A stretch of DNA of 64,000 bases from Rhodospirillales bacterium (GCA_030745835.1 JASLNU010000016.1:40945-104944); one strand, 5' to 3'. Numbered from the stretch's first letter, positions 11,511 to 61,237 are shown. The notes: a model not told the origin generated them from the sequence alone. Translations and numbers: made by a program.

Positions 11511-12439
11511 CACGCACCTCCTTTTTCGAGGTCCGCCTGGGCCCGGCGGATGGGATCGGCCAATGGCGCCTTGGTGGCGATCGGACAGACCCGCATGCAT
11601 TCGAAGCATTGCGCCAATAGCCCGCCGCTGCCCACCGACATCTTGTACCAGAGGGTCTTGTTTTCGGGCCGGTGCAGCATGGCGCTCCGCTCTTCCGGAG
11701 TTCCGGCGTTCATGGCGCCGGCCAGGACCGAGGCCAGGGTTTCATATTGCTGGGTCATTTCGGCGCAGGCGGCCATCTCGTAATTCATTTCCGTCTGATT
11801 GCCGGCGTCGTCGATGCTACCATCCAGGCATTGCACCGGGCAGAACTTCATGCACGGCGTCTTACCGATTTGTTTGTACATTTGGGCGCAGGAGGTTGCC
11901 GGGCAGGGGTTTTCGGTCATCGGCGCATCGGGCGGCAGCTCCAGTTCGGTGAAAACCGAGGCGAAATACATGTAGCCGTATTCGGGATGCAGCAGAATAT
12001 CGCCGGCCAGGGAACGGGCGCCGATGCCGGCCAGTTCGGCATGCAGCTTGATGCTTTGCAGCGGCACCCTGGAGCCCAGTTCCGGATCGATGTCCGGCGG
12101 ACAATAGACCGAGCGCGCCAGGTACGCCCGCTCGACCATGAACGCCAATCCGTAGGCGATGGAGTAGGCACGGCCCTCGGTTGAGCCGAAAAAGGTCAAG
12201 GCCTTGGCCGGCACGGTCCAGGCGCCTTGCGTCTGGCCGCCGACGCCGAGTGAGATCACCGATTTGACCCTCGGCATCAGATCGCTCGGCCGGTGGCCGG
12301 CGGGCGCGATGCGTTCGATGGCGTCCAGATCGGCAACCCCCGCCGCCAGCGCGCCTTTTTTCAGGCAATAGCCGAGGATCGCTTCCTTGGCCTCATTGGG
12401 ATCCAGGGGGGAATCGATGTCTATTTGGTTTTTTGCCAT
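11510..12439 (-). CDS. QueG/RdhA-superfamily-like iron-sulfur protein, paralog A
   Basis: 309 aa with 'HAELAGIGARSLAGDILLHPEYGYMYF' (compare the QueG core AGLG..GKN..LI..), a Cys-rich block 'CPATSCAQMYKQIGKTPCMKFCPVQC' and a distal 'CFECMRVCPI'. Confidence 0.55.
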   Translation of the reverse strand: MAKNQIDIDSPLDPNEAKEAILGYCLKKGALAAGVADLDAIERIAPAGHRPSDLMPRVKSVISLGVGGQTQGAWTVPAKALTFFGSTEGRAYSIAYGLAFMVERAYLARSVYCPPDIDPELGSRVPLQSIKLHAELAGIGARSLAGDILLHPEYGYMYFASVFTELELPPDAPMTENPCPATSCAQMYKQIGKTPCMKFCPVQCLDGSIDDAGNQTEMNYEMAACAEMTQQYETLASVLAGAMNAGTPEERSAMLHRPENKTLWYKMSVGSGGLLAQCFECMRVCPIATKAPLADPIRRAQADLEKGGA

Positions 12440-12440
12440 C

Positions 12441-25064: not shown

Positions 25065-26597
25065 ATGGACGATTTCACCGTTCCCGAGCTTCCGGACATC
25101 CCCGAACAGCCCAAGCTGGAGCCGGGCGCGATGTCCCATTCCAGCCCCTTCGTGGCCGCGCCCGAGCACCAAGAGGCGCTGGGCTTTCCGGGTGAATTGC
25201 CGGAAAACTGGAAGCAATTGGCGCTCGAAAAAATGGGCGAGCTGTTGGGCAAGTACCGCTCGCTCCGCGTCTATATGGATAGTTGCGTCAAGTGCGGCGC
25301 CTGCACCGACAAGTGCCATTATTTCCTCGGCACCGGCGATCCCAAGAACATGCCGGTGGCGCGCCAGGATTTGATGCGCGATGTCTACCGCCGCTATTTC
25401 ACTTATTCCGGCAAGTGGTTCCCCTGGCTGGTCGGCGCCAAGGATCTGACCGAGGAAATCCTCGACGATTGGTACATCTACTACCACCAATGTTCACAGT
25501 GCCGGCGCTGTTCGGTCTATTGCCCCTACGGCATCGACACCGCCGAGGTGTCGATGGCGGCGCGCGAAATCATGGACCATATCGGCAAGGGCCAGAAATA
25601 CTGTAACGAGATCATCGGCAAGGTTCATAGCATCGGCAACAATCTCGGCCTGCCGGAACCGGCCTTGCGCAATACCCTGGAAGACCTGGAAGAGGATCTC
25701 GAGGATGAAACCGGGCTCAAAGTCCGCCTGCCGCTGGATGAAAAGGGCGCCGATATCCTGCTGGTGACGCCGAGCGCCGATTTCTTCGCCGAGCCGCATG
25801 TGGACGGGCTGATGGGCTATGCCAAGGTCTTCCATCAGGCCGGCGTCAGCTGGACCCTTTCCTCTTACGCCTCGGAAGCCGCCAACTTCGCCATGTTCAT
25901 CGGTTCCTACGATCAGATGCGCGAGGTCGCGATGCGGATCCGCAAGGCGGCCGAGGATTTGGGCGTCAAACGCATCATCGTCGGCGAGTGCGGCCATGCC
26001 TGGCGGGTCGCCTACAGCTTCTGGAACACGCTGGCCGGGCCGTTCGATTTCCTCGATCCCGATTATCCGGTGCCGCAGCATATTTGCGAATTTACCCACG
26101 ATCTGATCGAGAAGGGCGAGCTGACCTTCGACAAATCCGCCAACGATCACATGACCCTGACTTTTCACGATTCCTGCAACGTCTCCAGGGGCTCGCGCAT
26201 GGGCGGCGATCCCGGCGGCCAGTTCCGCATCCCGCGCGAGATCATCAAGGCCTGCTGCAACAATTTTCACGACATGGCCGCCGATACCATCCACGAAAAT
26301 ACATTCTGCTGCGGCGGCGGCGGCGGGCTTCTAACCGACGATCTGATCGAGCTTCGGGTCAAGGGCGCGCAGCCGCGCATGCAGGCGCTTAAACAAGTGG
26401 CCGAGGACAAGGGCGTCACCCACCTGGCCGCCATTTGCGCCATCTGCAAAAGCCAGTTCGCCAAGGTCATGCCCTATTACGGCTTCGAAATGGACGCCAT
26501 CGTCAGCGTCCACCAGCTGGTCGGCAACGCCATCGTTCTGGACGGCCAGGAAACGGACGAGCCGGAAACTGGCGAACCGGAAGACGACGAAACTTGA
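25065..26597 (+). CDS. dsrK: DsrK (HdrD-like Fe-S/CCG-domain subunit)
   Basis: 510 aa with 'CVKCGACTDKC', 'CSQCRRCSVYCPYG' and the CCG motif 'FCCGGGGGL'. Confidence 0.9.
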   Translation: MDDFTVPELPDIPEQPKLEPGAMSHSSPFVAAPEHQEALGFPGELPENWKQLALEKMGELLGKYRSLRVYMDSCVKCGACTDKCHYFLGTGDPKNMPVARQDLMRDVYRRYFTYSGKWFPWLVGAKDLTEEILDDWYIYYHQCSQCRRCSVYCPYGIDTAEVSMAAREIMDHIGKGQKYCNEIIGKVHSIGNNLGLPEPALRNTLEDLEEDLEDETGLKVRLPLDEKGADILLVTPSADFFAEPHVDGLMGYAKVFHQAGVSWTLSSYASEAANFAMFIGSYDQMREVAMRIRKAAEDLGVKRIIVGECGHAWRVAYSFWNTLAGPFDFLDPDYPVPQHICEFTHDLIEKGELTFDKSANDHMTLTFHDSCNVSRGSRMGGDPGGQFRIPREIIKACCNNFHDMAADTIHENTFCCGGGGGLLTDDLIELRVKGAQPRMQALKQVAEDKGVTHLAAICAICKSQFAKVMPYYGFEMDAIVSVHQLVGNAIVLDGQETDEPETGEPEDDET

Positions 26598-26608
26598 AAG
26601 AAAAGACA

Positions 26609-28549
26609 ATGGACAAAACGGTAAACGAACAGCAGCTGACCAATCGCCGCTACCGGGACGGCGATGACCAACATCTGCCCTGGCAGCAGGAGATTTTCGA
26701 GGCCGATCATACCTACAAATGCCCGACCTATGTCCACCGCACGCCGCCATGCCAGGGCAGCTGCCCGTCGGGCGAGGATATCCGCGGCTGGCTCAACATC
26801 GCGCGCGGTATCGAAAAGGCGCCCGACGGCATGAGCTGGCAGGAATATGCCTTCAGGCGCATTACCGAAGCCAACCCATTTCCGGCGATCATGGGCCGGG
26901 TCTGCCCGGCGCCGTGCGAGGACGGCTGCAACCGGAACGAGGTCGAAGACCATGTCGGCATCAATTCGGTGGAACATTATATCGGCGATTATGCCCTGGA
27001 ACATGGCTTCAAGCTGCCCGATCCCGGCCCCGATACCGGCAAAAAGATCGCCATCATCGGCGCCGGCCCGGCGGGCCTCACGACCGCCTATCAGATGCGC
27101 CTGCGCGGCCATGCCTGCACGGTGTTCGAGCGCCACACGGAGCTTGGCGGCATGATGCGTTACGGCATCCCCGGCTACCGCACGCCGCGCGATGTGCTGG
27201 ACGGCGAGATTGGCCGCATCATCGATATGGGCGTCGAGGTGCGGACCAATTGCAAAATCGGTGTCGATGTCAGCCTGGATGAGCTTGAAAAAGACTTCGA
27301 TGCCATCTTCGTCGGCACCGGCGCCCAGGACGGCACCGCCTTGGCTGTCCCGGGCGGCGACGCCGACAACTGCATCAGCGGCATCGCCTTCCTCGATGCC
27401 TTCAATGACGGACGGCTTAAATTCGGCGCCGGGCGGGTGCTGGTCATCGGCGGCGGCGATACGGCGATGGATGTGGCCGCCGTCGCCAGGCGTCTCGGCC
27501 ATATCACCAAGGTTCATGAAAAAGACCTCCCCGAATATGTGGTGCTCGGGCAGACTACGCACGATGTTGCCACCGTCGCCAACCGCAAGGGCGCCGACGT
27601 GCAGATCGTTTACCGGCGGCCGATATCGAAAATGCCGGCGGCCAAGATGGAGATCGAGCACATCACCAAGGAAGGCGTGGAAATCCAGGAATCCCTGATC
27701 CCGCTGGAGGTGATCAAGGATTCGGGTGGCCGCGCCACGGCCTTGCGCGTCCAGAGCGTTGATTGGTCGTCGGGCCAGATGGAACCCATCGAGGGCACCG
27801 AGCGGGATATCGAATGCGATTTGATCGTCGCCGCCATCGGCCAGGTCGGCGATTTCATCGGCATGGAGAAGCTCGACAACGGCAAGGGGCTGTGCGATGC
27901 CGACGGCTTCTACCGGATTCCCGATATGGAACAATATTATGTCGGCGGCGACGTGGTGAAACCGCACTTGCTGACCACCGCCATCGGCCATGCCTCGATC
28001 GCCTCGGAAAGCATCGATCATTATCTGCAAGGCCAGGACCCGGGCCGGCGGCCGAAGGTGGATGTCCACCATTTCAACCTTCTCGGCAAGTTGCGCGAAA
28101 CCGGATTGGCGCCCGAAGATTACAACCACCAGCCGGCGGTCGGCACCGATGCGGAAAATTTCGCAATTCACAATTACGAAGACCGGGGGCATGCGGAAAT
28201 CGTGCCCGCCGACCAGTTGTTCCTGGGCCATTGGACCTATGTGTCGCGCGCCCGGCGCTCCGAACAGGATATTACCAGCGGTAACGTGCTCGGCCATTTC
28301 GATGAGCGCATCGTCGGTCTGGAGGAGGAAAACACGGTCGCCGAGGCCGAGCGTTGCATGAGCTGCGGCATCTGCTTCGAATGCGACAACTGCATCATTT
28401 ACTGCCCGCAGGATGCGGTCGAGCGGGTGAAAAAAGACCGCTCCACCGTGGGCCGCTATGTGGACACCATCTACGACAGATGCATCGGCTGCCATATCTG
28501 CGCCGATGTCTGCCCGTCGGGCTATATCCAGATGGGCCTCGGCGAATAA
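26609..28549 (+). CDS. dsrL: DsrL copy 1 (NAD(P)H:acceptor oxidoreductase, GltD-like with N- and C-terminal Fe-S domains)
   Basis: I prefer the ATG at 26609 (MDKTVNEQQ...), just after the dsrK stop. 'CPTYVHRTPPCQGSCPSGEDIRGW', 'IIGAGPAGL', 'VIGGGDTAMDVA', and a C-terminal ferredoxin 'CMSCGICFECDNCIIYCP...CIGCHICADVCPSG'. Confidence 0.9.
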   Translation: MDKTVNEQQLTNRRYRDGDDQHLPWQQEIFEADHTYKCPTYVHRTPPCQGSCPSGEDIRGWLNIARGIEKAPDGMSWQEYAFRRITEANPFPAIMGRVCPAPCEDGCNRNEVEDHVGINSVEHYIGDYALEHGFKLPDPGPDTGKKIAIIGAGPAGLTTAYQMRLRGHACTVFERHTELGGMMRYGIPGYRTPRDVLDGEIGRIIDMGVEVRTNCKIGVDVSLDELEKDFDAIFVGTGAQDGTALAVPGGDADNCISGIAFLDAFNDGRLKFGAGRVLVIGGGDTAMDVAAVARRLGHITKVHEKDLPEYVVLGQTTHDVATVANRKGADVQIVYRRPISKMPAAKMEIEHITKEGVEIQESLIPLEVIKDSGGRATALRVQSVDWSSGQMEPIEGTERDIECDLIVAAIGQVGDFIGMEKLDNGKGLCDADGFYRIPDMEQYYVGGDVVKPHLLTTAIGHASIASESIDHYLQGQDPGRRPKVDVHHFNLLGKLRETGLAPEDYNHQPAVGTDAENFAIHNYEDRGHAEIVPADQLFLGHWTYVSRARRSEQDITSGNVLGHFDERIVGLEEENTVAEAERCMSCGICFECDNCIIYCPQDAVERVKKDRSTVGRYVDTIYDRCIGCHICADVCPSGYIQMGLGE

Positions 28550-30511
28550 ATGAATAAATTGGATAAAATGACCACGACCGGGCAATCGGGATCGAACAGT
28601 TGGCGCCGTTTTCAGGACGGCGACACCAGATTTGATTCCTGGACCGATAAAATTTTTCTGGCCGGTCATTCCCATCAATGCCCGACCTATATCCACCGCA
28701 CGCCGCCGTGCCAGGGAAGCTGCCCGTCCGGCCACGATATCCGCGGCTGGCTGAGCATAGCCCGCGGCATCGACAAGCCGCCCACCCCCGGCATGGCCTG
28801 GCAGGAATATGCGTTCCTCAGCATGATCAACGCCAATCCATTTCCGGCGACCATGGGCCGGGTCTGCCCGGCGCCCTGCGAAGACGGCTGCAACCGCAAC
28901 GCGGTCGATGATTTCGTCGGCATCAACGCGGTCGAGCAATATGTCGGCGATTGGGCCATCGAAAACAAGATTCCGCTGCCCGGGCCGGATAGCGAAACCG
29001 GCATGAAGGTGGCGGTGATCGGCGGCGGACCCGCCGGCTTGACGGCGGCCTATATGCTGCGCCGCAAGGGACACGGCGTCACCATTTTCGAAAGCCAGGC
29101 AGAGCTCGGCGGCATGATGCGTTACGGCATCCCCGGCTACCGCACGCCGAGGGACATGATCGACGCCGAGATCGGCCGCATCCTCGATACCGGCGTCGAG
29201 GCGCGGCTCGAAACCCGCATCGGCAAGGATATCAGCAAGGCCGATCTGGAAAGCGAATTCGATGCCGTCTTCTGGGCCATCGGCGCGCAACAAGGCCGGC
29301 CGCTGCCGGTCCCGGGCGCCGATGCCGAGAACTGCATCACCGGCGTTGATTTCCTCGAAGCCTTCAACCAGGGAAGGCTGCAATTTGCCGCCAAGAAGGT
29401 GGTCGTGGTCGGCGGCGGCGATACCTCCATCGACGTTGCCTCGGTCGCCCGCCGCATCGGCCATATCGAACATGCCGGCGAAAAAGACCGTCCCGAAAAC
29501 GTGGTTCTCGGCCACACCGCCCACGATGTCGCCGGTTCGGTTCAGCGCCAGGGCGTCAAGGCGGTGCTCACCTCGTTGTTCCCGATCGATGAAATGACCG
29601 CCGCCGAACGCGAACGCGAGGACGCCAAGAGCGAGGGCGTCCAGTTGAAAGGCGGCGTAATGCCCGTCGAAATCGTCAAGGATGACGATGGGCGGGCGGT
29701 TGCCATCCGCATGTGCGCATGCGAAATGGACGGCATGAAGCCGCTGCCGATGGAAGGCACCGAGTTCGAAATCGAATGCGATCTGGTGGTCTCGGCGATC
29801 GGCCAGATGGGTGATCTAAGCGGCCTCGGGGGGCTCGACAATGGCAACGGATACATCGCCACCGACGAATTTTACCGCGTCGAGGGCAAGGAAAACCAGT
29901 TTGCCGGCGGCGATATTATCCGCCCGCATCTGCTGACCACCGCCATCGGCCAGGCGCGCATCGCGGTTCAAGGGATCGACAATCATCTATCCGGCGCCGA
30001 GCCCGGTAAACGGCCCAAGGTCGATGTCCATCATTTCAATCTGCTCGGTGAATTAGGCCAGCGGGATTTATCGCCGGCGGAATTCGACCACGTGCCGGCG
30101 CGCGGTACATCTGGGGCTGATTACGCGGTCCATAATTACGAGGACCGGGCGGCCACCCACATCATCCCCAATGACGAAATGTTCCTCGGCCATTTTCCCT
30201 TCGATGATCGTAACCGGCGCCAGGAACTGCATGTTTCCGAAGCCGACGTCCTCGGCCATTTCGCCGAACGCATCCAAGGGCTGAGCGAGGAACAGGCGGT
30301 CGCCGAAGGCCGCCGCTGCATGAGCTGCGGCATGTGCTTCGAATGCGACAACTGTGTCATTTTTTGCCCGCAGGATGCGGTTTTCCGGGTCAAAAAGGAT
30401 AAATCCGCCGTCGGCCGCTATGTCGATACCGACTATAGCAAATGCATCGGCTGCCATATCTGCGCCGATGTCTGCCCCACCGGCTATATCCAGATGGGCC
30501 TCGGCGAATAG
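28550..30511 (+). CDS. dsrL: DsrL copy 2 (tandem paralog)
   Basis: Its ATG directly abuts the stop of copy 1. It has the same domain series: 'CPTYIHRTPPCQGSCPSGHDIRGW', 'VIGGGPAGL', 'VVGGGDTSIDVA', 'CMSCGMCFECDNCVIFCP...CIGCHICADVCPTG'. Confidence 0.9.
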   Translation: MNKLDKMTTTGQSGSNSWRRFQDGDTRFDSWTDKIFLAGHSHQCPTYIHRTPPCQGSCPSGHDIRGWLSIARGIDKPPTPGMAWQEYAFLSMINANPFPATMGRVCPAPCEDGCNRNAVDDFVGINAVEQYVGDWAIENKIPLPGPDSETGMKVAVIGGGPAGLTAAYMLRRKGHGVTIFESQAELGGMMRYGIPGYRTPRDMIDAEIGRILDTGVEARLETRIGKDISKADLESEFDAVFWAIGAQQGRPLPVPGADAENCITGVDFLEAFNQGRLQFAAKKVVVVGGGDTSIDVASVARRIGHIEHAGEKDRPENVVLGHTAHDVAGSVQRQGVKAVLTSLFPIDEMTAAEREREDAKSEGVQLKGGVMPVEIVKDDDGRAVAIRMCACEMDGMKPLPMEGTEFEIECDLVVSAIGQMGDLSGLGGLDNGNGYIATDEFYRVEGKENQFAGGDIIRPHLLTTAIGQARIAVQGIDNHLSGAEPGKRPKVDVHHFNLLGELGQRDLSPAEFDHVPARGTSGADYAVHNYEDRAATHIIPNDEMFLGHFPFDDRNRRQELHVSEADVLGHFAERIQGLSEEQAVAEGRRCMSCGMCFECDNCVIFCPQDAVFRVKKDKSAVGRYVDTDYSKCIGCHICADVCPTGYIQMGLGE

Positions 30512-40647: not shown

Positions 40648-41458
40648 TCGAATCGGCCCAGCGGCGGCGGAAGAAAAATTGGCGGTCGGTTGCAACCTGC
40701 TGCCCCTGGTGCTCGACAAACTTTCCTATGAAATCGGCGGCACCCGGCTGATCAAGGAAATTTCGGCAAGTTTCGATGCCGGCTCGCTGACCGTGCTGAT
40801 GGGCCCCAACGGCGCCGGCAAAAGCTTGCTTTTGCGCCTCTGTCACGGTTTGATCGCGCCCTCGAGCGGCGCTATCAGATGGGACGGCACGAAGCCACGG
40901 AACCCGGAGCATTATCAGGCGATGGTCTTCCAGCGGCCCACCATGTTGCGCCGTTCGGTCACCGCCAACCTGCACCATGTATTGAAGCAGCGCCGGATTG
41001 CGCGCGCCCAACGCCTCGAAATCATCGACGACATGCTTAGGCGGACCGGCCTGGCGCGCCTGGCAAAAGCGCCGGCGCGCTCGCTTTCGGTCGGCGAACA
41101 GCAGCGCCTGGCGGTGGCCCGCGCCTGGTCGGTGAAGCCCGAGGTTCTGTTCATGGACGAGCCGACCGCGGCTCTCGATCCCGCCGCCACGCACGCGCTC
41201 GAAGATATCATCGCGGCGATACGGGATTCGGGGACCAAAATCATCATGTCCACCCACGATCTCGGCCAGGCGCGGCGCCTTGCCGATGATGTGGCGTTCC
41301 TCTATCGCGGACGGCTTCTGGAGCGGGCGGATGCCAAGTCATTCTTCGATAAGCCGGAGAACGATCTGGCCGAAGCGTTTCTGAATGGCGAGCTGTTGTG
41401 GTGGAACCGCAAGGAAATGAAGCCGCCGGAAAATTTCAAGGTGCGTTGGCAGAAATGA
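40640..41458 (+). CDS. tupC: ABC transporter ATP-binding protein (TupC-like)
   Basis: Walker A 'GPNGAGKSLL', signature 'LSVGEQQRLAVA' and Walker B 'VLFMDEPT'. Confidence 0.6.
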   Translation: MDNRIGPAAAEEKLAVGCNLLPLVLDKLSYEIGGTRLIKEISASFDAGSLTVLMGPNGAGKSLLLRLCHGLIAPSSGAIRWDGTKPRNPEHYQAMVFQRPTMLRRSVTANLHHVLKQRRIARAQRLEIIDDMLRRTGLARLAKAPARSLSVGEQQRLAVARAWSVKPEVLFMDEPTAALDPAATHALEDIIAAIRDSGTKIIMSTHDLGQARRLADDVAFLYRGRLLERADAKSFFDKPENDLAEAFLNGELLWWNRKEMKPPENFKVRWQK

Positions 41459-42315
41459 GCCGGGCGGCGTTTTTGCTGTTCGGATTGGCGGCGGTAACGT
41501 CGATCCTGATGCAATCCGCCGGGCCGGCGCGCGCCGCCGAGAATTCTTTCATCATGGCCTCGACCACATCGACGGTGAATTCCGGATTGTTCAAATCCAT
41601 CCTGCCGCTTTTTACCGCGCGAACCGGGATCGCCGCCCGGGTATTGGGGGTCGGCACCGGGCAGGCGATCCGCATTGCCGAGCGGGGCGATGCCGATGTC
41701 CTGTTCGTCCACCACAGGGAATCCGAGCTGGCCTTTGTTCAAGGCGGCTTCGGCGTTAAGCGCCATGACGTGATGTTCAATGATTTCGTCGTCGTCGGCC
41801 CGGCGGCTGACGCGGCGCGGGTCGGGAGCGCCGGAAGCGCGAGCCGGGCCTACCGGAAAATCGCCGCCGCCCGGTCGATATTCGTATCCCGCGGCGATGA
41901 CAGCGGCACCCACAGGAAAAGCCTGGAAATCTGGCGCCGCGCCGGTGTCGAGGTCAAGAATTTCAGCGGCCGATGGTACCGCGAAGCCGGCGCCGGCATG
42001 GGCGCCACCCTCAATATCGCCACCTCGATGGAAGCCTACACCTTGACCGACCGGGCCACTTGGGAAGCTTTCCGCAACAAGGGATCGCACCGGATACTGT
42101 ACGAGGGCGGGCCCGGCCTTAAGAATCAGTATGGTGTAATCCTGGTCAATCCGGCGCGCCACCGTCATATTCGCGTGGCCGCGGCGCGCGCCTTCATCGA
42201 CTGGGTGTTGTCGGATGCGGGGCAGGCAGCTATCGATGGCTTTCGCATCAACGGCAAGCAGATATTTTTCGCCAACGGGCGGCGCGCAGGGGGCGGGGAG
42301 GCAGGAAAGCAATGA
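41455..42315 (+). CDS. tupA: Periplasmic tungstate/oxyanion-binding protein (TupA-like)
   Basis: I prefer the ATG at 41455 (ATGA overlap with the ATPase stop), giving a signal peptide 'MSRAAFLLFGLAAVTSILMQSAGPARA'. Anion-binding motif 'ASTTSTVNSGL'. Confidence 0.55.
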   Translation: MSRAAFLLFGLAAVTSILMQSAGPARAAENSFIMASTTSTVNSGLFKSILPLFTARTGIAARVLGVGTGQAIRIAERGDADVLFVHHRESELAFVQGGFGVKRHDVMFNDFVVVGPAADAARVGSAGSASRAYRKIAAARSIFVSRGDDSGTHRKSLEIWRRAGVEVKNFSGRWYREAGAGMGATLNIATSMEAYTLTDRATWEAFRNKGSHRILYEGGPGLKNQYGVILVNPARHRHIRVAAARAFIDWVLSDAGQAAIDGFRINGKQIFFANGRRAGGGEAGKQ

Positions 42316-46579: not shown

Positions 46580-49500
46580 TTAGGCGGTCGCGCGCATTTC
46601 TATCGCCTGGCCCAGATCGACCGAAACCAGCTGTGAAACGCCCTGTTCGCCCATCGTCACGCCGAACAACCGGTCGACCCGCGCCATCGTCATGCGATGG
46701 TGGGTGATGACCAGGAAACGGGTCGAAAGGGAATGGGCGATTTCCTCGACCAGGGAACAGAAACGGTCGACATTGGCATCGTCCAAGGGCGCGTCGACCT
46801 CATCCAGCACGCAGATCGGCGCCGGATTGGTCAAAAAGACGGCGAACAGCAACGACAGGGCGGTCAGGGCCTGCTCGCCGCCCGATAGCAGCGATAGCAC
46901 CTGCAGGCGCTTGCCCGGCGGACTGGCCATGATCTCGAGCCCGGCTTCCAGGGGATCGTCCGATTCGGTCAAGCTCAGATGGGCGCGGCCGCCGCCGAAC
47001 AGGCGCACGAAAAGTTCCTGAAAATGGGTGTCGACTTCCTTGAACGAGGCTAAGAGGCGCTGCCGTCCCTCGCGGTTCAATTCGTTGATGCCGCGGCGCA
47101 GCTTGTCGATGGCCTGCAACAGATCGGCGCGTTCCGAGACCAGTGTTTCCACCTGTTCGCTCAGTTCCCCGGCCTCGGTCTCGGCGCGAAGGTTCACCGG
47201 GCCCATGTTTTCGCGCTCCCGGATCAGCCGCTCGACGCGCCTTTCGGCGGCTTCCAATTCGGGCGGCTCGGCATCCTCTTTGAGCCCGGAAATCTCGCGC
47301 AATTCACCGGGCTTGGAGCGGAGCCGGTCGGCAATGCGCTCGCCAAGCGCGCCGGCGGCCTGTTTCGCCTGCTCGACGGCGGCTTCGGCGCGCACCCGCG
47401 TCTCGCGCGCGCCGGACAAAACGGCTTCGGCTTCGCGCAGGCGCTTGTCGGCTTCGCCGAGCCGGGTTTCCCCCGCCGCCAGCTTGTCGGCGAAAGCGTT
47501 GCGCTCGGCTTCGGCTTTTTCGGTGCGGTCCAGCAGTTCCGCCCGCCGCCGTTCGATGTCCGATGGCAGATCGGAAAGGCGCGCCAATTCCTGTTCCAGC
47601 GCCTCGCGGCGTTCCGCCAATTGGCCTTGGCGCTCGATGGCGCCGGATTTGCGTTGCTCCCAGGATGCGGCCTCCCGGGTGATGGTTTCAAGCCGCCGGC
47701 GGCGGTCGTCGGCGCGCCGGTTCAGCGTCTCGAAGGCGCTTTGCGCCTCGACAAGCTGGGTGCGCCGCGCCGCGACATCTTCGCGCAGTTCTTTGGCTTC
47801 GGTGCGCACCGGTTCGATATCGGAAAGAGCGCCTTCCTCTTTTGCCGCCTCGGCGAGCGCCGCTTCGGCTTCTTCGATGTCCGAGGCGAGGCGCGCCGCC
47901 GTTTCCTCGCGCGCCGACAGTTTGGATTGCGATTCCGTGGCCCTTTGCCGGACCTGAGCCAGTGCGCCGCGCGCTTCCGATAGCGCGTCCCCGGCGTTGC
48001 GCGCCTTGCTCCGGGCGTCGGCTTCATGGCGCGCGGCCTGCTCGGCGGCGGCACGGGCCGCATCGGCGCTTTCCTTGGCGTCAATGGCAACGCCGCCGGC
48101 ATCGGCCAGCTTTTCGCGCACGCCTTCAAGCCGGTTGCGCTGCTCGAGGCGCACCGCCGCGCCGGTGGGCGCCTCGGCGGCCGCAAAATAGCCATCCCAG
48201 CGCCAGAACGCGCCATCGCGGGTCACCAGCCGTTGGCCCTGGCGCAGCTCGGCAAGCAGGCGCCAACCGGTGTCAAGGTCATCGACGATACCAATTTGCG
48301 CCAGCCGCCGGTTCAAGGCACCCGGCCCTTGGACATGAAGCGACAGCGGCTCGGCGCCGCCCGGCAGCGCCGGCGCATCACCGGCCGGCGCATCAACTTG
48401 ATGCCAGTGCATCGGCGCCGCCTCGTCGGTGGCCGCCGATAAATCGTCGCCAAGCGCCGCCCCCAATGCCGATTCCAGGCCGGCATCGACGGTAATGGCA
48501 TCGACCACCGGCGGCCAAAGATCGGGATCGCCCGTTTCAAGCAGTTCGGCGAGGGCCTTTTCCTCGGCTTCCAGGCGCGCCGCCTCGTTGATCCGGCCCT
48601 GCGCGGTTTCGACGGCTTCATCGGCTGATCCTTGGGATTCGCGGCGGGCGGTTTCGGCGGTCTCGGCGGCGGCGCGGGTGGCCCCTGCCGCTTCCTCGGC
48701 GGCGGCGGCATTTTCTTCCGCCTCGGTAATTTCGGCCGGATCGACGGCGGCGGTGCGCAATTCGGAAACCTGCGCGCCCAACTCGTCCTGGCTTTGCCGC
48801 AAGCGTTCCATGCGCCCGGTCAATTCGAAGCGCCGCCGCGAAAGATCGGTCCGGCGGGCTTCCAGGCCGGCCAGTTTTTCGGTCAATTTGGATAGGCTGC
48901 TTTCAGCGCTTTGCGTCTCGCCGCGCCGGGATTCAAGATGGGCTTCGGCTTCGGCGATCAGTTCTTCTTCATCCTTGCCGACGCCGCCGATTTCAGCCTC
49001 TTCCGAGCCGAGGCGGGATATCGCCTGCTCGGCGTCGCCGGCGAGGGCCGCCTCGCGGCTGGTATCCTCGGTGATCTGTTCGAGCCTCGCTTCGCCATCC
49101 CGGCGCGCGGCCTCAAGGCGTTCGCCTTCCTCTTCCAAATTTTCGCGGGCGATGGTCAGGCGTTGCAGCGCCGCCGCCGCCGCCGCTTCGTCGTTGCGCA
49201 GCTCGGGCAGCCCCGATGCCGCCTCGGCCTGTTCGGTGGCGGCACGGGTCGCGGCCCCGGTGGCTTCGCCAACCTCGCGCTCGACCTCGGCCAGGCCCTG
49301 CTCGGCGGCCTGCAATTCCTCGGCGGCGTTGTTCCACAGAATAAGAAACAGGGTGGCTTCCGCCTTGCGCACATGGTCGTTGAGGTTGCGGTAGCGGGTT
49401 GCCTGGCGGACCTGTTTCTTGAGGCTCTGCATCTGGGCTTCCAGGGTCACCAGGATATCGTCCAGGCGTTCCAGGTTGGTATCGGCGCCGCGCAGGCGCA

Positions 49501-50044
49501 ACTCGGCTTCGTGGCGCCTGGAATGAAGTCCGGTTATGCCCGCCGCTTCCTCCAGGAGCTTGCGCCGTTGCGTCGGTTTGGCGGCTATCACCTCGCCGAT
49601 ATGGCCCTGGCCAACCAGCGCCGTCGAGCGGGCGCCCGAAACCTGATCGGCGAACAGCAATTGCACGTCGCGGGCGCGCACTTCCTTGGAATTGACCCGG
49701 TAGGTGGAGCCTTTTTCGCGCTCGATCCGGCGGCTGATTTCCAGTGTATCGGTTTCGTTGAACTCGCCCGGCGCGTCGCGCTCCGAATTGTCCATGGTTA
49801 AGAGAACCTCGGCAATATTGCGCGCCGGCCGGTTCGCGGTTCCCGAGAAGATCACATCATCCATTTCGCCGCCGCGCATCTGCTTGGCCGAGGTTTCGCC
49901 CATCACCCATTTCAGGCTTTCGACGATGTTCGACTTGCCGCAGCCATTGGGCCCGACGACGCCGGTCAGGCCGGGCTGGATATCCAGCTCGGTCGCATTG
50001 ACGAAGGATTTGAATCCGGTGAGCTTTATTTTGCTGAATTGCAC
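46580..50044 (-). CDS. smc: Chromosome partition protein Smc
   Basis: 1154 aa. N-terminal Walker A 'GPNGCGKSN', long coiled coils, C-terminal signature 'LSGGEQALTALSLLFA' and Walker B 'VLDEVDAPLD'. Confidence 0.95.
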   Translation of the reverse strand: MQFSKIKLTGFKSFVNATELDIQPGLTGVVGPNGCGKSNIVESLKWVMGETSAKQMRGGEMDDVIFSGTANRPARNIAEVLLTMDNSERDAPGEFNETDTLEISRRIEREKGSTYRVNSKEVRARDVQLLFADQVSGARSTALVGQGHIGEVIAAKPTQRRKLLEEAAGITGLHSRRHEAELRLRGADTNLERLDDILVTLEAQMQSLKKQVRQATRYRNLNDHVRKAEATLFLILWNNAAEELQAAEQGLAEVEREVGEATGAATRAATEQAEAASGLPELRNDEAAAAAALQRLTIARENLEEEGERLEAARRDGEARLEQITEDTSREAALAGDAEQAISRLGSEEAEIGGVGKDEEELIAEAEAHLESRRGETQSAESSLSKLTEKLAGLEARRTDLSRRRFELTGRMERLRQSQDELGAQVSELRTAAVDPAEITEAEENAAAAEEAAGATRAAAETAETARRESQGSADEAVETAQGRINEAARLEAEEKALAELLETGDPDLWPPVVDAITVDAGLESALGAALGDDLSAATDEAAPMHWHQVDAPAGDAPALPGGAEPLSLHVQGPGALNRRLAQIGIVDDLDTGWRLLAELRQGQRLVTRDGAFWRWDGYFAAAEAPTGAAVRLEQRNRLEGVREKLADAGGVAIDAKESADAARAAAEQAARHEADARSKARNAGDALSEARGALAQVRQRATESQSKLSAREETAARLASDIEEAEAALAEAAKEEGALSDIEPVRTEAKELREDVAARRTQLVEAQSAFETLNRRADDRRRRLETITREAASWEQRKSGAIERQGQLAERREALEQELARLSDLPSDIERRRAELLDRTEKAEAERNAFADKLAAGETRLGEADKRLREAEAVLSGARETRVRAEAAVEQAKQAAGALGERIADRLRSKPGELREISGLKEDAEPPELEAAERRVERLIRERENMGPVNLRAETEAGELSEQVETLVSERADLLQAIDKLRRGINELNREGRQRLLASFKEVDTHFQELFVRLFGGGRAHLSLTESDDPLEAGLEIMASPPGKRLQVLSLLSGGEQALTALSLLFAVFLTNPAPICVLDEVDAPLDDANVDRFCSLVEEIAHSLSTRFLVITHHRMTMARVDRLFGVTMGEQGVSQLVSVDLGQAIEMRATA

Positions 50045-55397: not shown

Positions 55398-56154
55398 CCC
55401 GGCTGGGGATGGCCCAACGACACAGCCCGGCTGGGGATGGCCGGGTCGGCCAGCCGGGCGTTGATCTAGGCACCTGTCTATGTGAAGTGCCAAGCCCTGG
55501 CTCGCTAATTAGGACAGGTGCCAAGTTTGACGCCCGCATGGCCAACCCGGCCACGCCTGAGCGGGTTGCTTCGTTAAAGTGCGACACATTTCGGCGAAAA
55601 CGGGCATAGGCATTATGGGCTTTTATAGGCATTTATTGGCTTTTTCAGGCTTTTGAACCGCCGAGGCGATGAGGCGGCGAGGTACGGGGAAAACCGCAAA
55701 CAGCGCCGTCATACCCCGACTTGATCGGGGTATCCAGAGGGGCAGCGGAGTATCCTGGATCACCCGATCATCTGTTTAGACCGGAGACATAGCTGACAGG
55801 TGTTCGGAGAGATGGTTGACACATTCCGGCGAAATCCACCATACCGGATCACCATCATTGCTATCGGTTCATACCGTTTCATACCCTTTTGTCCCCCGCG
55901 CGCGGCGGCGCACCCCCGGCCAAACCGCAAGCAACCGAGGCCCGCAATCCCTGTTCCTTATTGAACATTCACGATGTCGGAGCGCAGAAATATAATATAG
56001 AACAAAAATAGAACAATTGCAAGGAAATTCGACATCTCGCATGTCCGGTCCCGATGACGTTTTCGGTCCATTTCCCGTTTACCGTTTGATTTATTGCCTG
56101 ATTCTCAACTTCGTTTAATATCACGGTTACAGCTAATGTTCTCCGGGGAGGACG

Positions 56155-59100
56155 ATGGCGGATCAACCGCTGAAACGCAGGCTGGCGGCGATCCTGGCCG
56201 CCGACGTGGCCGGTTATACGGCGCGCATGGAAGCCGACACCGACGGCACCGTCGCCGCCTGGCAGGATGCCCGTGAAAAAATCGTAAAACCAAATGTCGC
56301 CGGTTATTCCGGCAACATCGTCAAGCTCACCGGCGACGGCTTCCTGGTCGAGTTTCCGACCGTCCAGGACGCCGTCAACTGCGCCATCGCCATGCAGCAG
56401 GAATTGGCATCCCACAGCCTTGAATTCCGGATGGGCGTCAATCTCGGCGATATCGTCGATGACGGCGAGGATATCCACGGCGAGGGGGTCAATGTGGCGG
56501 CACGGCTTGAAGCCCTGGCCGAAGCCGGCGGCATCTGCATCTCGGGCATGGTCTACGAATCGATCCGCAACCGGATCGAAGCCGTCTTCGAGGACCGCGG
56601 CGAGCAGCAGGTGAAGAACGTTTCGGCGCCGGTGCGGGTCTATGACATCCGCTTGCATGGCCCCGCCGCCGGCCCCGATCCCGCCGCCCCTGGCGCCGCC
56701 GCCGATATCGCCGATACCGACAAACCCTCCCTCGCCGTGCTGCCCTTCGAGAATTTATCGGCGGACCCGGAGCAGGAATATTTCTCCGACGGCATGACCG
56801 AGGACATCATCACGGCGTTGTCGCGAATTCGCTGGTTTTTTGTCATCGCCCGAAATTCGAGCTTTGCCTACAAGGGCAGGAATGCGGACCTGCGCGATGT
56901 CGCGGCCGAGCTTGGCGTCCGTTACATTATCGAGGGCAGCCTGCGCACGGCGGGCAACCGGATTCGCCTCACGGCTGAGCTTGTCGATGGAACGAATGGT
57001 GCTCAAATCTGGTCGGAACGCTTCGATCGGGATATCGAGGACATGTTCGATCTGCAGGACGAATTGACGCAAACCATCGTCGCCGCCATCGAGCCGCAAT
57101 TGGGCCGCGCCGAGCAGGAAAGGGCGAAGCTCAAAAAACCCGGCACGCTCGGCGTCTGGGATATTTATCAGCGCGGCATGCACGAGCTGCACCGGCTTAC
57201 CGAGGACAGTCTCGCCGCCGCCGAGGCGACGCTTACCACCGTCACCGAAACCGATCCGGTTTTCGCTGCCGCCCATGCGGGGCTGGCCGAAGTTCACTTT
57301 TACAATCTCGTTCTCGGTTTCGTCGGCGAGCCCGATGCGTCGCGTGAAAAAGCGCTTTCCGCCGGCCGCCGCGCGGTAGAGCTCGATCAGGAAGACGCCA
57401 ATGCCCACTGCGCGTTGGGGCGGGCCTATACCGTCAACAGGATGTTCGACGACGCCATCCCCGAATTTGAAACGACGCTAGACATCAACCCCAGCCATTC
57501 TCTCGCCCATTATGGGTTGGGTTCGGCACACTTATACATGGGCTCGCCGAAAGCCAGCCTGCAGCATTTGGATACGGCTATTCGCCTGAGCCCGCAGGAT
57601 ACGAACCTTGGCTCATTCTTCGTGCGCAAGGCGCAGGCACATCTTTATCTGCAAGAGCACGTGGAAGCGGTTGACTGGGCCCGGCGCGCGCTCCGGCTGC
57701 CCAACTTCCAATGGTCGCGCTACGTCATGCTGATCTCGGCCCTTGGACATCTCGGCCGCGCCGACGAAGCGGCACCGGCGATCGAAGAGCTGATGCGGCG
57801 CGTGCCGAATTTTTCCAGGCAATATGCCTTGGATTACTCGCCGTGGCTGGATGACGATTATTTTAGGCATCTGGCGGACGGCCTCGAGAAGGCGGGTTTG
57901 CCGGAACCTACATCCGCCGAAGAAGCCGCCGAGCCGCCGGCGCTTCCCGACAAACCCTCGATCGCCGTGCTGCCCTTCGACAACCTGTCGGGCGATGCGG
58001 AGCAGGAATATTTCAGTGACGGGATAACAGAAGACATCATCACCGACCTTTCCAAGGTCTCGGCGCTTTTCGTCATCGCCCGAAATTCAACCTTCACCTA
58101 CAAGGGCAAGGCGGTGGATGTGAAGCAGGTGGCGGCCGAGATGGCGGTCCGCTACGTGGTCGAGGGCAGCGTCCGCAAGGCGGCAAACCGGGTCCGCATC
58201 ACCGCACAGTTGATCGACGGAAGCACCGGCGGACATGTTTGGGCCGACCGCTATGACCGCGAGCTCACCGACATATTCGAGGTCCAGGACGAGGTCACGC
58301 GCAATATCGTCGATTCCCTGAAGGTCGTGCTTAGCCCCGATGAAGACGCCCGCATCGGCGGCAAGGGCACTCGCAATATGGAAGCCTACGATATTGCGCT
58401 CCGGGCACGTGACCTTATCTGGCGATTTACCGCCGAAACGAACGCGGAAGCTTTAGTCATGCTCAAAAAGGCGGTTGAGTTGGATCCGAAGTTCAGCTTG
58501 GCCCAATCCGGATTATCGCTGCTGCTTTCCACCGACTATGTCAATGGGTGGAACGAAGCAACCTACGAGACCCTTGAGGAATGCCTTGATCTGGCAAGAC
58601 TTGCCATCGAACTCGACGCAACAGACCCACAGGGTTATTGGGCACTAGCCGTCGCATTTATGTGGAAACGAGATTTGGATAGGGCAAATTTGGAAATTGA
58701 ACGCGCCATAGCGCTAGATACGAATTTGGCTTCTGCATATGCGATCCAAGGAAACATACTTGGCTTTGCAGGACGTCCGGTCGAAGCAATGGCGAGCTTG
58801 GAAAAAGCCATGAGTCTGGACCCGCAGTTTCCCGATATTTATTTGCATCTTCTTGGGCACAGTCTTCTGCTGCAAGGCAAATACGAGGATGCTGCAGAAC
58901 ATCTTAGAAGTCGGATCCGCCGGTTTCCTGAGACCGACATTTCACGGGTGTTGCTGGCATCCTGTTACGGTCATCTCGGCCAGAAGGATGCGGCGGAAAA
59001 AGTGTGGCAGGAGCTTTTGCTTGGCCATCCCGATTTTTCGCTGGAGAACAAGGAGCGGGTCCAGCCCTACAAAAATCCGGCCGATTGGGAACATATCCTA

Positions 59101-60351
59101 GACGGCCTTCGCAAGGCCAGGCTGCCGGAACCGGCGCCCGCCGAAGAGGCGCCGCCAACCCTCCCCGACAAACCCTCGATCGCCGTGCTGCCGTTCGACA
59201 ACCTGTCGGGCGACGCCGAGCAGGAATATTTTTCCGACGGTATATCGGAAGACATCATCACCGCGCTCAGCCGCATCCGGACATTCTTCGTTATCGCCCG
59301 CAACACCACCTTTACCTACAAGGGGCAGGCCGTGGATGTGCAGGCCATCGCCAAGGATCTGGGTGTCCGCTACGTGCTCGAAGGCAGCGTGCGCAAAGCC
59401 GGCAACCGGGTGCGCATCTCGGCCCAGTTAATCGATGGTGAGACCGGCAATCATCTGTGGGCAGAGAAATACGACCGCGAGCTGGAAGACATATTTGCCG
59501 TCCAGGACGAGATCACGCAAACGGTTGTCGGTTCGCTACAGCCAGAACTCGGTAAAGCAGAACAGCAGATTTCCCGGAGGAAGAAGTCGGAAAATCTAAA
59601 TGCCTGGGAATGTTTCCAGAGGGCGATGTGGTACATAGACCAGCGAAATCTGACCAGTATCGCAGAAGCGCGTATTTGGTTTCGGCGCGCGACGGAGATC
59701 GATCCTGAATTTGGTGATGGCTATGCGGGTTTTGCATGGACGTATCAGCTAGGCGTTTTAATGGGAGAGGAGGATCAGGATGCCGAAGAAGCCGAGCAGG
59801 CTGCTCGGCGCGCATTGCAGATCGATAACAACAGTCCAACGGCGCATTTAGCCTTTGGTGCTGTTTCCGTCATTCAACGGAATCACCCGGTGGCAATCGA
59901 ACATTTGAATAAAGCCATAGAATTGAACCCGAGCTATTCCCAGGCGCACCATCTTCTATCACGGTCATATTCCCATTCCGGCAACCCCAAAGAGGGGCTG
60001 TTTCATGGGCACGAAGCGGTAAGATTGAGCCCCAATGATCCGACCCTGGGAGGATTTTATGCCGCGATTTCTTTGGCCCACCTTTATCTGCGAGAGCACG
60101 AAGAGGCCGTTATTTGGGCCCGAAAATCATTAGATGCCCCGGGTTTCGGGGCTATGACCTTCCCATTTCTGATATCCGCACTTGGACATCTCGGTCGTTT
60201 GCCGGAGGCAGAGGTGATCATCGCAGAGTTTCGAAAACTCCACCCAAGGGCAAATTATGCGTTCTTCCGCGACGATTTCCCAACATCGGACGAAGCTTGT
60301 TTAGAACACCTGATTAACGGTCTCCGCAAGGCCGGGTTGCCGGATAGCTGA
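56155..60351 (+). CDS. Class III adenylate/guanylate cyclase fused to three tandem (TolB-N-like + TPR) modules
   Basis: 1398 aa. The N-terminal cyclase domain has 'LAAILAADVAGYTARM', 'KLTGDGFLVEF' and 'GEGVNVAARLE'. It is followed by three ~400-aa repeats, each starting 'DKPS[LI]AVLPF[ED]NLS.D.EQEYFSDG' and ending '...GL[ER]KA.LP[ED]'. Confidence 0.85.
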   Translation: MADQPLKRRLAAILAADVAGYTARMEADTDGTVAAWQDAREKIVKPNVAGYSGNIVKLTGDGFLVEFPTVQDAVNCAIAMQQELASHSLEFRMGVNLGDIVDDGEDIHGEGVNVAARLEALAEAGGICISGMVYESIRNRIEAVFEDRGEQQVKNVSAPVRVYDIRLHGPAAGPDPAAPGAAADIADTDKPSLAVLPFENLSADPEQEYFSDGMTEDIITALSRIRWFFVIARNSSFAYKGRNADLRDVAAELGVRYIIEGSLRTAGNRIRLTAELVDGTNGAQIWSERFDRDIEDMFDLQDELTQTIVAAIEPQLGRAEQERAKLKKPGTLGVWDIYQRGMHELHRLTEDSLAAAEATLTTVTETDPVFAAAHAGLAEVHFYNLVLGFVGEPDASREKALSAGRRAVELDQEDANAHCALGRAYTVNRMFDDAIPEFETTLDINPSHSLAHYGLGSAHLYMGSPKASLQHLDTAIRLSPQDTNLGSFFVRKAQAHLYLQEHVEAVDWARRALRLPNFQWSRYVMLISALGHLGRADEAAPAIEELMRRVPNFSRQYALDYSPWLDDDYFRHLADGLEKAGLPEPTSAEEAAEPPALPDKPSIAVLPFDNLSGDAEQEYFSDGITEDIITDLSKVSALFVIARNSTFTYKGKAVDVKQVAAEMAVRYVVEGSVRKAANRVRITAQLIDGSTGGHVWADRYDRELTDIFEVQDEVTRNIVDSLKVVLSPDEDARIGGKGTRNMEAYDIALRARDLIWRFTAETNAEALVMLKKAVELDPKFSLAQSGLSLLLSTDYVNGWNEATYETLEECLDLARLAIELDATDPQGYWALAVAFMWKRDLDRANLEIERAIALDTNLASAYAIQGNILGFAGRPVEAMASLEKAMSLDPQFPDIYLHLLGHSLLLQGKYEDAAEHLRSRIRRFPETDISRVLLASCYGHLGQKDAAEKVWQELLLGHPDFSLENKERVQPYKNPADWEHILDGLRKARLPEPAPAEEAPPTLPDKPSIAVLPFDNLSGDAEQEYFSDGISEDIITALSRIRTFFVIARNTTFTYKGQAVDVQAIAKDLGVRYVLEGSVRKAGNRVRISAQLIDGETGNHLWAEKYDRELEDIFAVQDEITQTVVGSLQPELGKAEQQISRRKKSENLNAWECFQRAMWYIDQRNLTSIAEARIWFRRATEIDPEFGDGYAGFAWTYQLGVLMGEEDQDAEEAEQAARRALQIDNNSPTAHLAFGAVSVIQRNHPVAIEHLNKAIELNPSYSQAHHLLSRSYSHSGNPKEGLFHGHEAVRLSPNDPTLGGFYAAISLAHLYLREHEEAVIWARKSLDAPGFGAMTFPFLISALGHLGRLPEAEVIIAEFRKLHPRANYAFFRDDFPTSDEACLEHLINGLRKAGLPDS
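56719..60348 (+). repeat. Three tandem intragenic repeat units of about 1.2 kb (56719-57948, 57949-59166, 59167-60348)
   Basis: Unit boundaries are set by the recurring 'gacaaaccctc' (DKPS) at 56719, 57949 and 59167. The first ~75 nt of units 2 and 3 are roughly 90% identical by eye. Confidence 0.8.
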
Positions 60352-60412: not shown

Positions 60413-61237
60413 CTATAGGGTCATCAGGTCTTCGCCGATGGTCAGCGGCCCGGAATAATCGCGGCCGATGATCTCGCGCAATTCTTCCGCTATCGAGATC
60501 GGATTCATGTGCGAGGTGACCAGCAGTTTGGGCGCCGCGTCGCGGGCCACCATGCCGATCTGTTCGGGAAAGGTGTGATAGAGCGCCATCGCTTCAAGCC
60601 TTTGCTCGGCGCTTTCCCATCCCGATCCCGGAATGAAGGGCATTTTCGCGGCATGCATGCATTCATGCACCAGAAGATCGGCGCCATGGGCATGCTTGAC
60701 CAGGTTCTCGCAAGGCCGCGTATCACCGGACAGGACGATGCCCCGATCCTTGGCATCGAAACGGAAGCCGAAGGCGTAATCGATGGGCGGGTGTTCGACG
60801 CGAAAGGCGGTGACCTTCAATCCGTCCAATTCGAGGACCTCGCCCTCATCGAATTCATGGACGATGACCTCCGGCAACGGGCGCGCCGTGCCCTGGTGCG
60901 CGACGCGAATTTTCAGATCGTATTCGTGCAGGCGCATGATATTTTCGATCATCTCCTTCTGGCGCGGCGGGCCATAGACATTGAGCGGCCTGTCGTCGCC
61001 GAATATCCAGCGGGTAATGATGAAATGGTCGAGATCGATATAATGATCGGAATGGTGATGGGTGATCAGGAGATGATTAATCTCGGGCGGCCGTATCCCG
61101 GTTTCGTGGAGCCGGGTGACGACCCCGGAGCCGCAATCGACGAGGATGTTTTCGGCGCCGGCGTGGATCACCTGGGACGGCCCGCGGCGGTCGGGGTTGG
61201 GCGTCGGGGTGCCGGTGCCGAGAAGCGTTATCTGCAT
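60413..61237 (-). CDS. MBL-fold metallo-hydrolase (RNase Z/arylsulfatase-like)
   Basis: 274 aa with 'MQITLLGTGTP' and the metal motif 'ITHHHSDHYIDL'. Confidence 0.8.
   Translation of the reverse strand: MQITLLGTGTPTPNPDRRGPSQVIHAGAENILVDCGSGVVTRLHETGIRPPEINHLLITHHHSDHYIDLDHFIITRWIFGDDRPLNVYGPPRQKEMIENIMRLHEYDLKIRVAHQGTARPLPEVIVHEFDEGEVLELDGLKVTAFRVEHPPIDYAFGFRFDAKDRGIVLSGDTRPCENLVKHAHGADLLVHECMHAAKMPFIPGSGWESAEQRLEAMALYHTFPEQIGMVARDAAPKLLVTSHMNPISIAEELREIIGRDYSGPLTIGEDLMTL

Follow-up and report, generated by a model that had tools for sequence, protein, structure and literature searches.

Proteins in which a nucleotidyl cyclase domain of class III precedes a TolB-N-like domain and a TPR region make up one of the largest groups of bacterial class III cyclases yet to be characterised, with many copies per rhizobial replicon. 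The rhizobial members, listed as 'adenylate/guanylate cyclase domain-containing protein', carry a single such TolB-N-like and TPR module (here called a cassette) in a protein of about 580–620 amino acids, and the CyaF group of S. meliloti probably belongs to this one-module family. The function of the CyaF proteins has been described as unknown (PMC5498481, PMC13001267). X. campestris XC_0250 likewise has a class III cyclase at its N-terminus, with an uncharacterised TPR region after it (PMC3770947), and outside the cyclases the sensor of CadC has been described as an alpha-beta sandwich followed by TPR (PMC9214523). Here we describe a gene at 56155..60351 (plus strand) in a 64,000-nucleotide stretch of DNA from a Rhodospirillales bacterium (GCA_030745835.1 JASLNU010000016.1:40945-104944; this whole stretch is referred to below as the window), the product of which has the same layout of cyclase plus first cassette as the one-module rhizobial cyclases (about 40% identity over amino acids 1–582, both to those of 400 plasmid records and to those on Bradyrhizobium chromosomes) but carries three cassettes where they have one.

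We consider it likely that this protein is a soluble class III adenylyl cyclase with three distinct CadC-like cassettes which were shuffled at their junctions and which would regulate the output of cyclic AMP (cAMP). The origin of the array is considered first, followed by the domains of the protein, the occurrence of similar proteins and the function that might be proposed for it.

Origin of the three-cassette array

The gene is a single complete open reading frame (ORF) encoding 1398 amino acids plus stop, in which the cyclase domain and a short linker precede three repeated units. A hidden Markov model (HMM) of the first 125 residues of the units placed their starts at 56719, 57949 and 59167, exactly where a preliminary description of this sequence had put them, and gave no other match in the window. 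Cassette 1 (U1, type A, 56719..57948) consists of an alpha/beta domain (56719–57093), a long connecting helix, about seven predicted TPR pairs and an LPEP..AEEA..LP linker, cassette 2 (U2, type B, 57949..59166) of an alpha/beta domain (57949–58323) followed by TPR and linker, and the terminal cassette 3 (U3, type A, 59167..60348) of an alpha/beta domain (59167–59541) followed by TPR and ending in ...GLRKAGLPDS, all three being delimited by HMM match on the plus strand. The motifs reported earlier, and the linker '..GL.KA.LPEP..AEEA..LP', were found as described. The units are collinear and can be aligned end to end by pairwise BLASTP (E 7e-85 to 2e-121) with 38–46% amino acid identity. The three-fold repetition is real, and the N-terminal domains are conserved while the TPR halves have diverged, as had been proposed.

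The repetitive architecture of the gene and its metagenomic source might suggest that the three units are an assembly artefact resulting from an expanded or collapsed repeat. We give this next to no credence, as the whole units share only 50–55% nucleotide identity and are too diverged to mis-assemble, and a protein of the same length has been recovered independently at 99.9–100% identity on at least 15 contigs in ENA, JGI, NCBI metagenome-assembled genome (MAG) and Tara datasets. These independent contigs settle the earlier concern over an artefact, and one of them, from ENA, carries an identical protein with the same neighbouring genes. The 90%-identity cluster to which the protein belongs has eight members, including two further 1398-amino-acid sequences at 99.9% (one of them on 13 contigs), 'Rhodospirillales bacterium' proteins from NCBI MAGs (MDP6427955.1 and others) and two mesopelagic gene fragments from Tara Oceans, and the NCBI MAG and Tara mesopelagic occurrences point to a marine Rhodospirillales lineage.

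We undertook a neighbour-joining analysis of 60 modules with 100 bootstrap replicates, which placed each cassette with a module from another protein. The sister of U1 is P0013_m1 (81–82% amino acid identity), the fourth module in a five-module gene with frameshifts at locus L058, those of U2 are the first modules P0008_m1 and P0010_m1 (74–75%), and that of U3 is the second module P0009_m2 (83–85%). Each of the sister pairs U1–P0013_m1, U2–P0008_m1 and U3–P0009_m2 was recovered with a bootstrap value of 100, and any two of U1–U3 were joined in none of the 100 replicates. The U2-type clade (support 97) includes modules from array position 1 (P0007, P0008) as well as from position 2 (P0017). Sister cassettes are therefore found in differing contexts, as exchange would predict, unlike a recent triplication in place.

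A closer comparison of the U2 and U3 starts indicates where the similarity between neighbouring cassettes lies. These had been reported to be about 90% identical at the nucleotide level, and this is correct for the very beginning of the units (95% over the first 60 nucleotides and 89% over 90) but not further in, where identity drops to 79% over 120–150 nucleotides and to 75% over the 375 nucleotides of the N-terminal domain. The stretch formed by the junction with the 5' end of cassette 2 (57933..58045, plus strand) is 88% identical over 113 nucleotides to its counterpart in cassette 3 (59151..59263, plus strand). Over the first 60 nucleotides, pairs of modules within the same gene are more similar (0.95 for U2/U3, 0.90 for modules 4 and 5 of L058, and 0.85 for modules 1 and 2 of L056) than sister pairs (0.78–0.80), and over nucleotides 91–375 this is reversed (0.66–0.71 within genes and 0.79–0.87 for sisters). 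The pattern is suggestive of module junctions evolving in concert within a gene, as crossovers there would give. Recent gene conversion over the whole N-terminal domains was also considered and rejected, as the third-position identity of U2 and U3 (at identical residues) reaches 0.79 over the first 40 codons but is only 0.62–0.68 beyond them.

The main reading of the preliminary description, internal duplication followed by diversification, can be taken as a recent tandem triplication in place, after which the TPR halves diverged rapidly. While the collinearity and equal length of the units, and the similarity of the U2 and U3 N-terminal domains and of their first 60 nucleotides in particular, are what such an event would leave, each cassette is closer to its sister elsewhere (74–85% amino acid identity) than to the others in the same protein (38–46%), the bootstrap analysis never joined the units, and the high identity is limited to about 100 nucleotides at the junction and non-sister modules in other genes display this pattern too. 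We therefore regard a recent internal duplication as highly improbable.

The order of modules around the sister cassettes is also informative. In P0008, the cyclase domain (63% identical to that of the window protein) is followed by the U2-like module and then by a module sharing about 90% identity with U3 in its alpha/beta domain and about 30% in its TPR part. In P0009, the cyclase domain (62%) is followed by a module with 45–46% identity to U1 and then by the U3-like module, and in L058, module 5, next to the sister of U1, has 48% identity to U3 and is unlike U2. The closest cyclase domains (71–83% identity) are in yet other two-module genes, several of which are split by frameshifts, and the nearest full-length relatives, P0002 and P0011, share 44–45% identity with the window protein, with P0011 having the same A-B-A order.

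The retention of this order by P0011 at 45% identity, together with the existence of five-cassette relatives (P0002–P0005, L058), could also be explained by vertical descent from an old ancestor with at least five cassettes and lineage-specific loss, which would need no recombination between genes and in this respect speaks against shuffling. However, vertical descent does not sit well with the unrelated neighbours of the sister cassettes (module 5 of L058 and module 1 of P0009), with the combination of a U3-like N-terminal domain and a dissimilar TPR part in the second module of P0008, with the location of the closest cyclase domains in yet other genes, or with shifts in base composition inside single cassettes (see below). 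We consider this explanation unlikely, though less so than recent triplication, and differential loss from a longer ancestor would explain only part of the sister pattern.

The base composition of the gene was examined using the GC content at third codon positions (GC3) in a 60-codon sliding window. GC3 is 0.67–0.87 from the start of the gene to the end of the U2 alpha/beta domain, falls to a trough of 0.40–0.55 in the U2 TPR core (58495..58950, plus strand), returns to 0.80 over the U2/U3 junction and the U3 alpha/beta domain, and then falls again to 0.50–0.58 in the U3 TPR part up to the stop codon (59400..60348, plus strand), with the GC content of codon positions 1 and 2 remaining flat. 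Taken by domain, the GC3 of the TPR parts is 0.71, 0.57 and 0.53 for U1, U2 and U3, respectively, and that of the N-terminal domains 0.75–0.81, with ORFs elsewhere in the window having a mean of 0.746 (standard deviation 0.07). None of the 195 windows of 270 codons taken from these other ORFs had a GC3 as low as the U3 TPR part. Across the U2 trough the third-position identity to the sister module falls to 0.34–0.64, and the contig carrying the U3 sister has a GC content of 53.6%, in agreement with a possible import from a lineage of lower GC. The spot GC counts given earlier (26/60, 26/60 and 33/60) were exact, and the AT-rich character of the TPR halves which had been noted from them is real in U2 and U3, where it sits at third codon positions. 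We note that Pfam gave no match for three low-GC3 ORFs in the window (26480–29524, 12387–13745 and 41305–42312), each of them probably read in the wrong frame, and as these are probably spurious, the GC3 background of real genes is tighter than the figure used here.

The presence of the sisters in other proteins, the pattern over the first 60 nucleotides and the GC3 troughs together favour shuffling, and the array is probably a mosaic of old, distinct cassette types (A-B-A) brought together by cassette shuffling at conserved junctions. A mosaic origin had been offered as the alternative in the preliminary description, and it fits the module tree, the junctions and the GC3 evidence.

Domains of the cyclase protein

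The cyclase catalytic domain had been described as complete and as occupying about amino acids 1–165, and this agrees with our assignment of amino acids 7–164 (56173..56646, plus strand) based on structure and profile matches and residue columns. This region matches PDB 3mr7 (E 1.9e-37), with Ma1120 and Rv1900c also aligned, and passes the Pfam Guanylate_cyc (PF00211) threshold weakly (25.6 bits, cut-off 21.9). It is joined to cassette 1 by a Pro/Ala-rich linker (amino acids 165–188; 56647..56718, plus strand) which is outside both domain alignments. When the window protein was aligned with 100 homologues, the metal-binding residues D17 and D61, the transition-state residues N113 and R117, and K154 were found to be kept in 98–101 of the 101 sequences. 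In class III cyclases a Lys/Asp pair specifies adenine (ATP as the substrate), and the window protein has this pair (K57/D106) in common with its 30 closest relatives as well as with 3mr7 and Ma1120. As the pair and all of the metal and transition-state residues are present, the domain is catalytically complete and should be an active adenylyl cyclase which, by the known mechanism of the class III family, would work as a dimer.

Two other possibilities for this domain are that it is a guanylyl cyclase or an inactive scaffold. XC_0250 (886 amino acids) is a cyclase–TPR protein which makes cGMP (PMC3770947), and the residues found at the pair positions in 54 of the 101 aligned cyclases are non-canonical, but with the canonical Lys57/Asp106 and a full set of metal and transition-state residues in the window protein, we think that neither is at all probable. 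The replacement in these 54 cyclases is a charge-swapped Asp57/Arg106 pair, with Asp/Thr in eight more, and these variants belong mainly to a group of two-cassette proteins of about 1030 amino acids.

The protein begins directly with the cyclase domain and is without a hydrophobic or membrane segment (19-residue Kyte-Doolittle means peak at 1.24), from which we predict a soluble, cytoplasmic protein; a signal peptide and a lipobox were looked for in the 1398 amino acids and neither was found.

The fold of the alpha/beta domain was modelled with AlphaFold2 (AF2) using the first 135 residues and an alignment of 36 sequences, and the model (predicted local distance difference test, pLDDT, 96) has the order strand, helix, two short helices, three-stranded meander and long helix. 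A Foldseek comparison with the PDB returned GNA1162, FlgT, PelC, LpoB, the TolB N-terminal domain and CsgG, with template modelling (TM) scores of up to 0.72 for TolB and E values of 1e-6 to 3e-8 for PelC, LpoB, FlgT and GNA1162. Among the 36 domains, Pfam gave only weak matches to FlgO (23/36), TolB_N (22/36) and FlgT_M (21/36), with a best E of about 1e-6 and no single stretch passing the curated thresholds. The domain content given in the preliminary description (class III cyclase, TolB-N-like and TPR) was therefore right, with 'TolB-N-like' being correct at the level of the fold.

A model of the whole of cassette 1 (pLDDT 85) consists of the alpha/beta domain, the connecting helix (module residues 106–136) and 14 further helices, and the C-terminal part of the cassette would be made up of about seven TPR helix pairs; TPR_1, TPR_2, TPR_11, TPR_16 and TPR_19 are above the Pfam cut-offs in each module. 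Compared with the PDB, this model matched generic TPR proteins and the CadC periplasmic sensor (3LY7/3LY8/3LY9/3LYA), to which about 315 of about 320 residues could be aligned with an E of about 1e-6, though with a global TM score of just 0.35–0.45. The NCBIfam CadC model (NF007540) matched amino acids 614–891 in cassette 2 (E 4e-27; 95 bits, far under the cut-off of 400) and the HilA/EilA model (NF009037) amino acids 188–486 in cassette 1 (E 2e-25; 89 bits, far under the cut-off of 589). The protein does not belong to either family, as only the sensor part of CadC matches and the winged-helix domain and membrane helix are missing, and no Trans_reg_C match, which HilA/EilA would need, was found in the Pfam scan. 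It also falls outside TIGR04510, the putative peptide-modification-system cyclase (90 bits, cut-off 400, one cassette matched). On the basis of the match in two-part layout, the NCBIfam CadC match and the published description of the sensor (PMC9214523), we refer to the repeated module as a CadC-sensor-like cassette, which is predicted to be cytoplasmic here, as it would be in HilA. A STAND-type cyclase (NB-ARC/AAA, Rv0386-like) was also considered and rejected, as neither the Pfam nor the NCBIfam matches included the P-loop nucleoside triphosphatase domain which in such cyclases separates the cyclase from the TPRs, and the 24-residue linker after the cyclase leads into a TolB-N-like domain.

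Occurrence of multi-cassette cyclases and surroundings of the gene

Proteins of this family had been described as carrying one unit each. This is the case in cultured, species-representative genomes, where all 59 of the related ORFs (54 loci, most from Bradyrhizobium) have one cassette, and in a plasmid collection in which 653 records match, 400 of them over at least 80% of the cyclase plus one cassette (about 582 amino acids, with generic annotation). It is not the case in metagenomes, where proteins with two to seven modules are plentiful. The best 120 full-length metagenome-derived matches include 98 proteins with two cassettes, 13 with three, three with four and six with five, and none with one or seven, and the best 147 new representatives (50% clustering) include 17 with one cassette, 98 with two, 23 with three, six with four, two with five and one with seven (two or more in 130). 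Both rankings favour multi-cassette proteins, so the counts prove abundance but not frequency. Among environmental bacteria, multi-cassette cyclases with between two and seven cassettes are common, and their architecture is not rare but already abundant in public data. The earlier view of the triplication as unusual had been made subject to multi-module homologues not being common and already characterised: they are common, but searches of the accessible literature on COG5616, on TolB-like or TPR architectures with cyclases and on cyaF turned up no study characterising multi-cassette forms or the cassette where it occurs in cyclases.

The cassettes are not confined to cyclases. A three-cassette profile matched 60,761 representative clusters (50% identity) at E <= 1e-30, the N-terminus of many top representatives is something other than a cyclase, and precomputed Pfam lists for the full-length matches include Ser/Thr kinase, Trans_reg_C and BTAD outputs.

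Two further features of the family should be noted. One-cassette members, some without a matching cyclase domain, are often found as tandem or near-tandem same-strand pairs (L018, L021, L032 and L033, from Bradyrhizobium and soil Alphaproteobacteria), and such pairs could feed unequal recombination. Frameshifted multi-cassette cyclase genes are also present among the close relatives, including the five-cassette gene of L058 (3852–10451; frames 2,0,0,2,2) and those of L059 (8001–10962), L062 and L063 (8001–10995), with the two-cassette genes of L059 and L062 being split at different positions inside the first alpha/beta domain. These same frameshift breaks recur across independent assemblies (L059, L060 and L061 are from three samples), and these could be pseudogenes or systematic sequencing errors.

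The neighbour downstream of the cyclase gene is an MBL-fold hydrolase gene (60413..61237, minus strand), which is convergent with it and leaves 61 nucleotides between the two stop codons. The best NCBIfam matches of the hydrolase are RNase Z models (182 bits, under the cut-off), and it has a precomputed Pfam match to Anti-Pycsar Apyc1. A role as a cAMP phosphodiesterase was rejected, as the score for this was 84 bits against a cut-off of 400, the RNase Z models score better and the linkage is not conserved. The cyclase is absent from 12 metagenome loci with orthologues of the hydrolase (68–88% identity), and synteny with L065–L068 (hydrolase 83–84%, and Amidohydro_2 88% in L067) stops exactly at the hydrolase stop codon, with nothing matching below 60400. 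This places the cyclase gene at a rearrangement or insertion boundary, and for the same reason the gain of cassettes at this locus is not traceable. The relatives of the cyclase are in unrelated gene neighbourhoods, and given this and the hydrolase loci which lack the cyclase, we propose no partner gene and regard the cyclase gene as standing alone. Further away, the window includes a gene for an SMC chromosome-segregation protein (46580–50044, minus strand; 1154 amino acids, with SMC_N and hinge domains), which indicates that the window is chromosomal and not part of a mobile element.

A Shine-Dalgarno sequence, GGAGG (56147..56151, plus strand, read from the sequence), is 3 nucleotides ahead of the ATG at 56155, and is preceded by an unusually long non-coding region of 757 nucleotides in all (55398..56154), in which no ORF is found in the independent assembly and to which no Rfam family matched. 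A sigma-70-like site (TTCACG-17-TATAAT) at 55968–55996 is a match not above shuffle expectation and within chance. The 5' end of the region has two copies of an 18-nucleotide direct repeat, GCCCGGCTGGGGATGGCC, at 55398–55445, and there is an inverted repeat near 55710–55735 and an AT-rich tract at 55960–56150.

Proposed function and comparison with known systems

For the shuffled-cassette cyclase favoured here, we suggest that the N-terminal domain would make cAMP as a homodimer, and that each TPR cassette may bind its own ligand or partner protein. Occupancy of the cassettes could then alter the geometry of the dimer or its oligomeric state, and hence cyclase activity, with several inputs feeding a single cAMP output. 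The nearest relatives of the cassettes themselves are in other cyclases with two to five cassettes, where they occupy other array positions. The conserved linker and cassette start, which seem to be homogenised within each gene, probably act as the recombination site for cassette swapping, and in cassettes 2 and 3 the TPR parts have a codon composition that looks foreign. More speculatively, the alpha/beta domains may instead serve oligomerisation, by analogy with the rings formed by PelC, CsgG and FlgT.

Several points weigh against this reading. The homogenisation of the junctions involves short stretches, amounting to 57/60 matches compared with 47–48/60; the U2 GC3 trough is not shared by the sister module in L056 (TPR GC3 0.70), and no donor was identified; and no conserved gene neighbour at the loci of the cyclase relatives points to a partner. 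In addition, ligand binding and regulation are pure inference for this protein and its multi-cassette relatives, and as the proteins with the TolB-N/PelC/LpoB fold and the CadC sensor are periplasmic, the analogy with them may not carry over, though HilA is cytoplasmic.

A more general proposal, which we hold only tentatively and think doubtful as a whole, is that CadC-like cassettes are exchangeable units which paralogous and foreign signalling genes (cyclases, Ser/Thr kinases and winged-helix regulators) trade by recombining at a conserved junction homogenised within each gene, giving arrays of between two and seven different sensors per output domain, and that cassettes 2 and 3 owe their TPR parts to recent import from donors of lower GC. 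If true, this would offer a combinatorial route to multi-input second-messenger signalling in environmental bacteria. Taken by itself, the window gene is an ordinary if elaborate signalling gene, without linked partner genes or evidence for a new mechanism. It is nonetheless a possible case of modular sensor evolution, and a cassette which is akin to the CadC sensor, and which here would work without export and be stacked and exchanged, provides handles for experiments.

Among known systems, the multi-cassette cyclases from metagenomes, such as P0011 (1401 amino acids, three cassettes) and P0002 and P0005 (about 2200 amino acids, five cassettes), have the same architecture as the window protein with only 41–45% overall identity and have been annotated automatically only. 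XC_0250 makes cGMP, and in this differs from the window protein with its adenine-specifying Lys/Asp pair. The TolB N-domain, PelC, LpoB, CsgG, FlgT and GNA1162 have the same fold as the alpha/beta domain with 12–20% identity, but they belong to the periplasm or are outer-membrane lipoproteins, and several form rings. No export signal is present in the window protein, which, as its N-terminal cyclase would also need cytoplasmic ATP, is predicted to be cytoplasmic rather than periplasmic. The CadC sensor is likewise periplasmic and is present as a single copy on a winged-helix domain and membrane helix, whereas the cassette is predicted to be cytoplasmic and is present in three copies on a cyclase. 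HilA/EilA is cytoplasmic and its central and C-terminal region resembles cassette 1, but it has a single cassette and a DNA-binding winged-helix output in place of three cassettes and a cyclase output. The window protein is thus a multi-cassette variant of a known, uncharacterised cyclase family.

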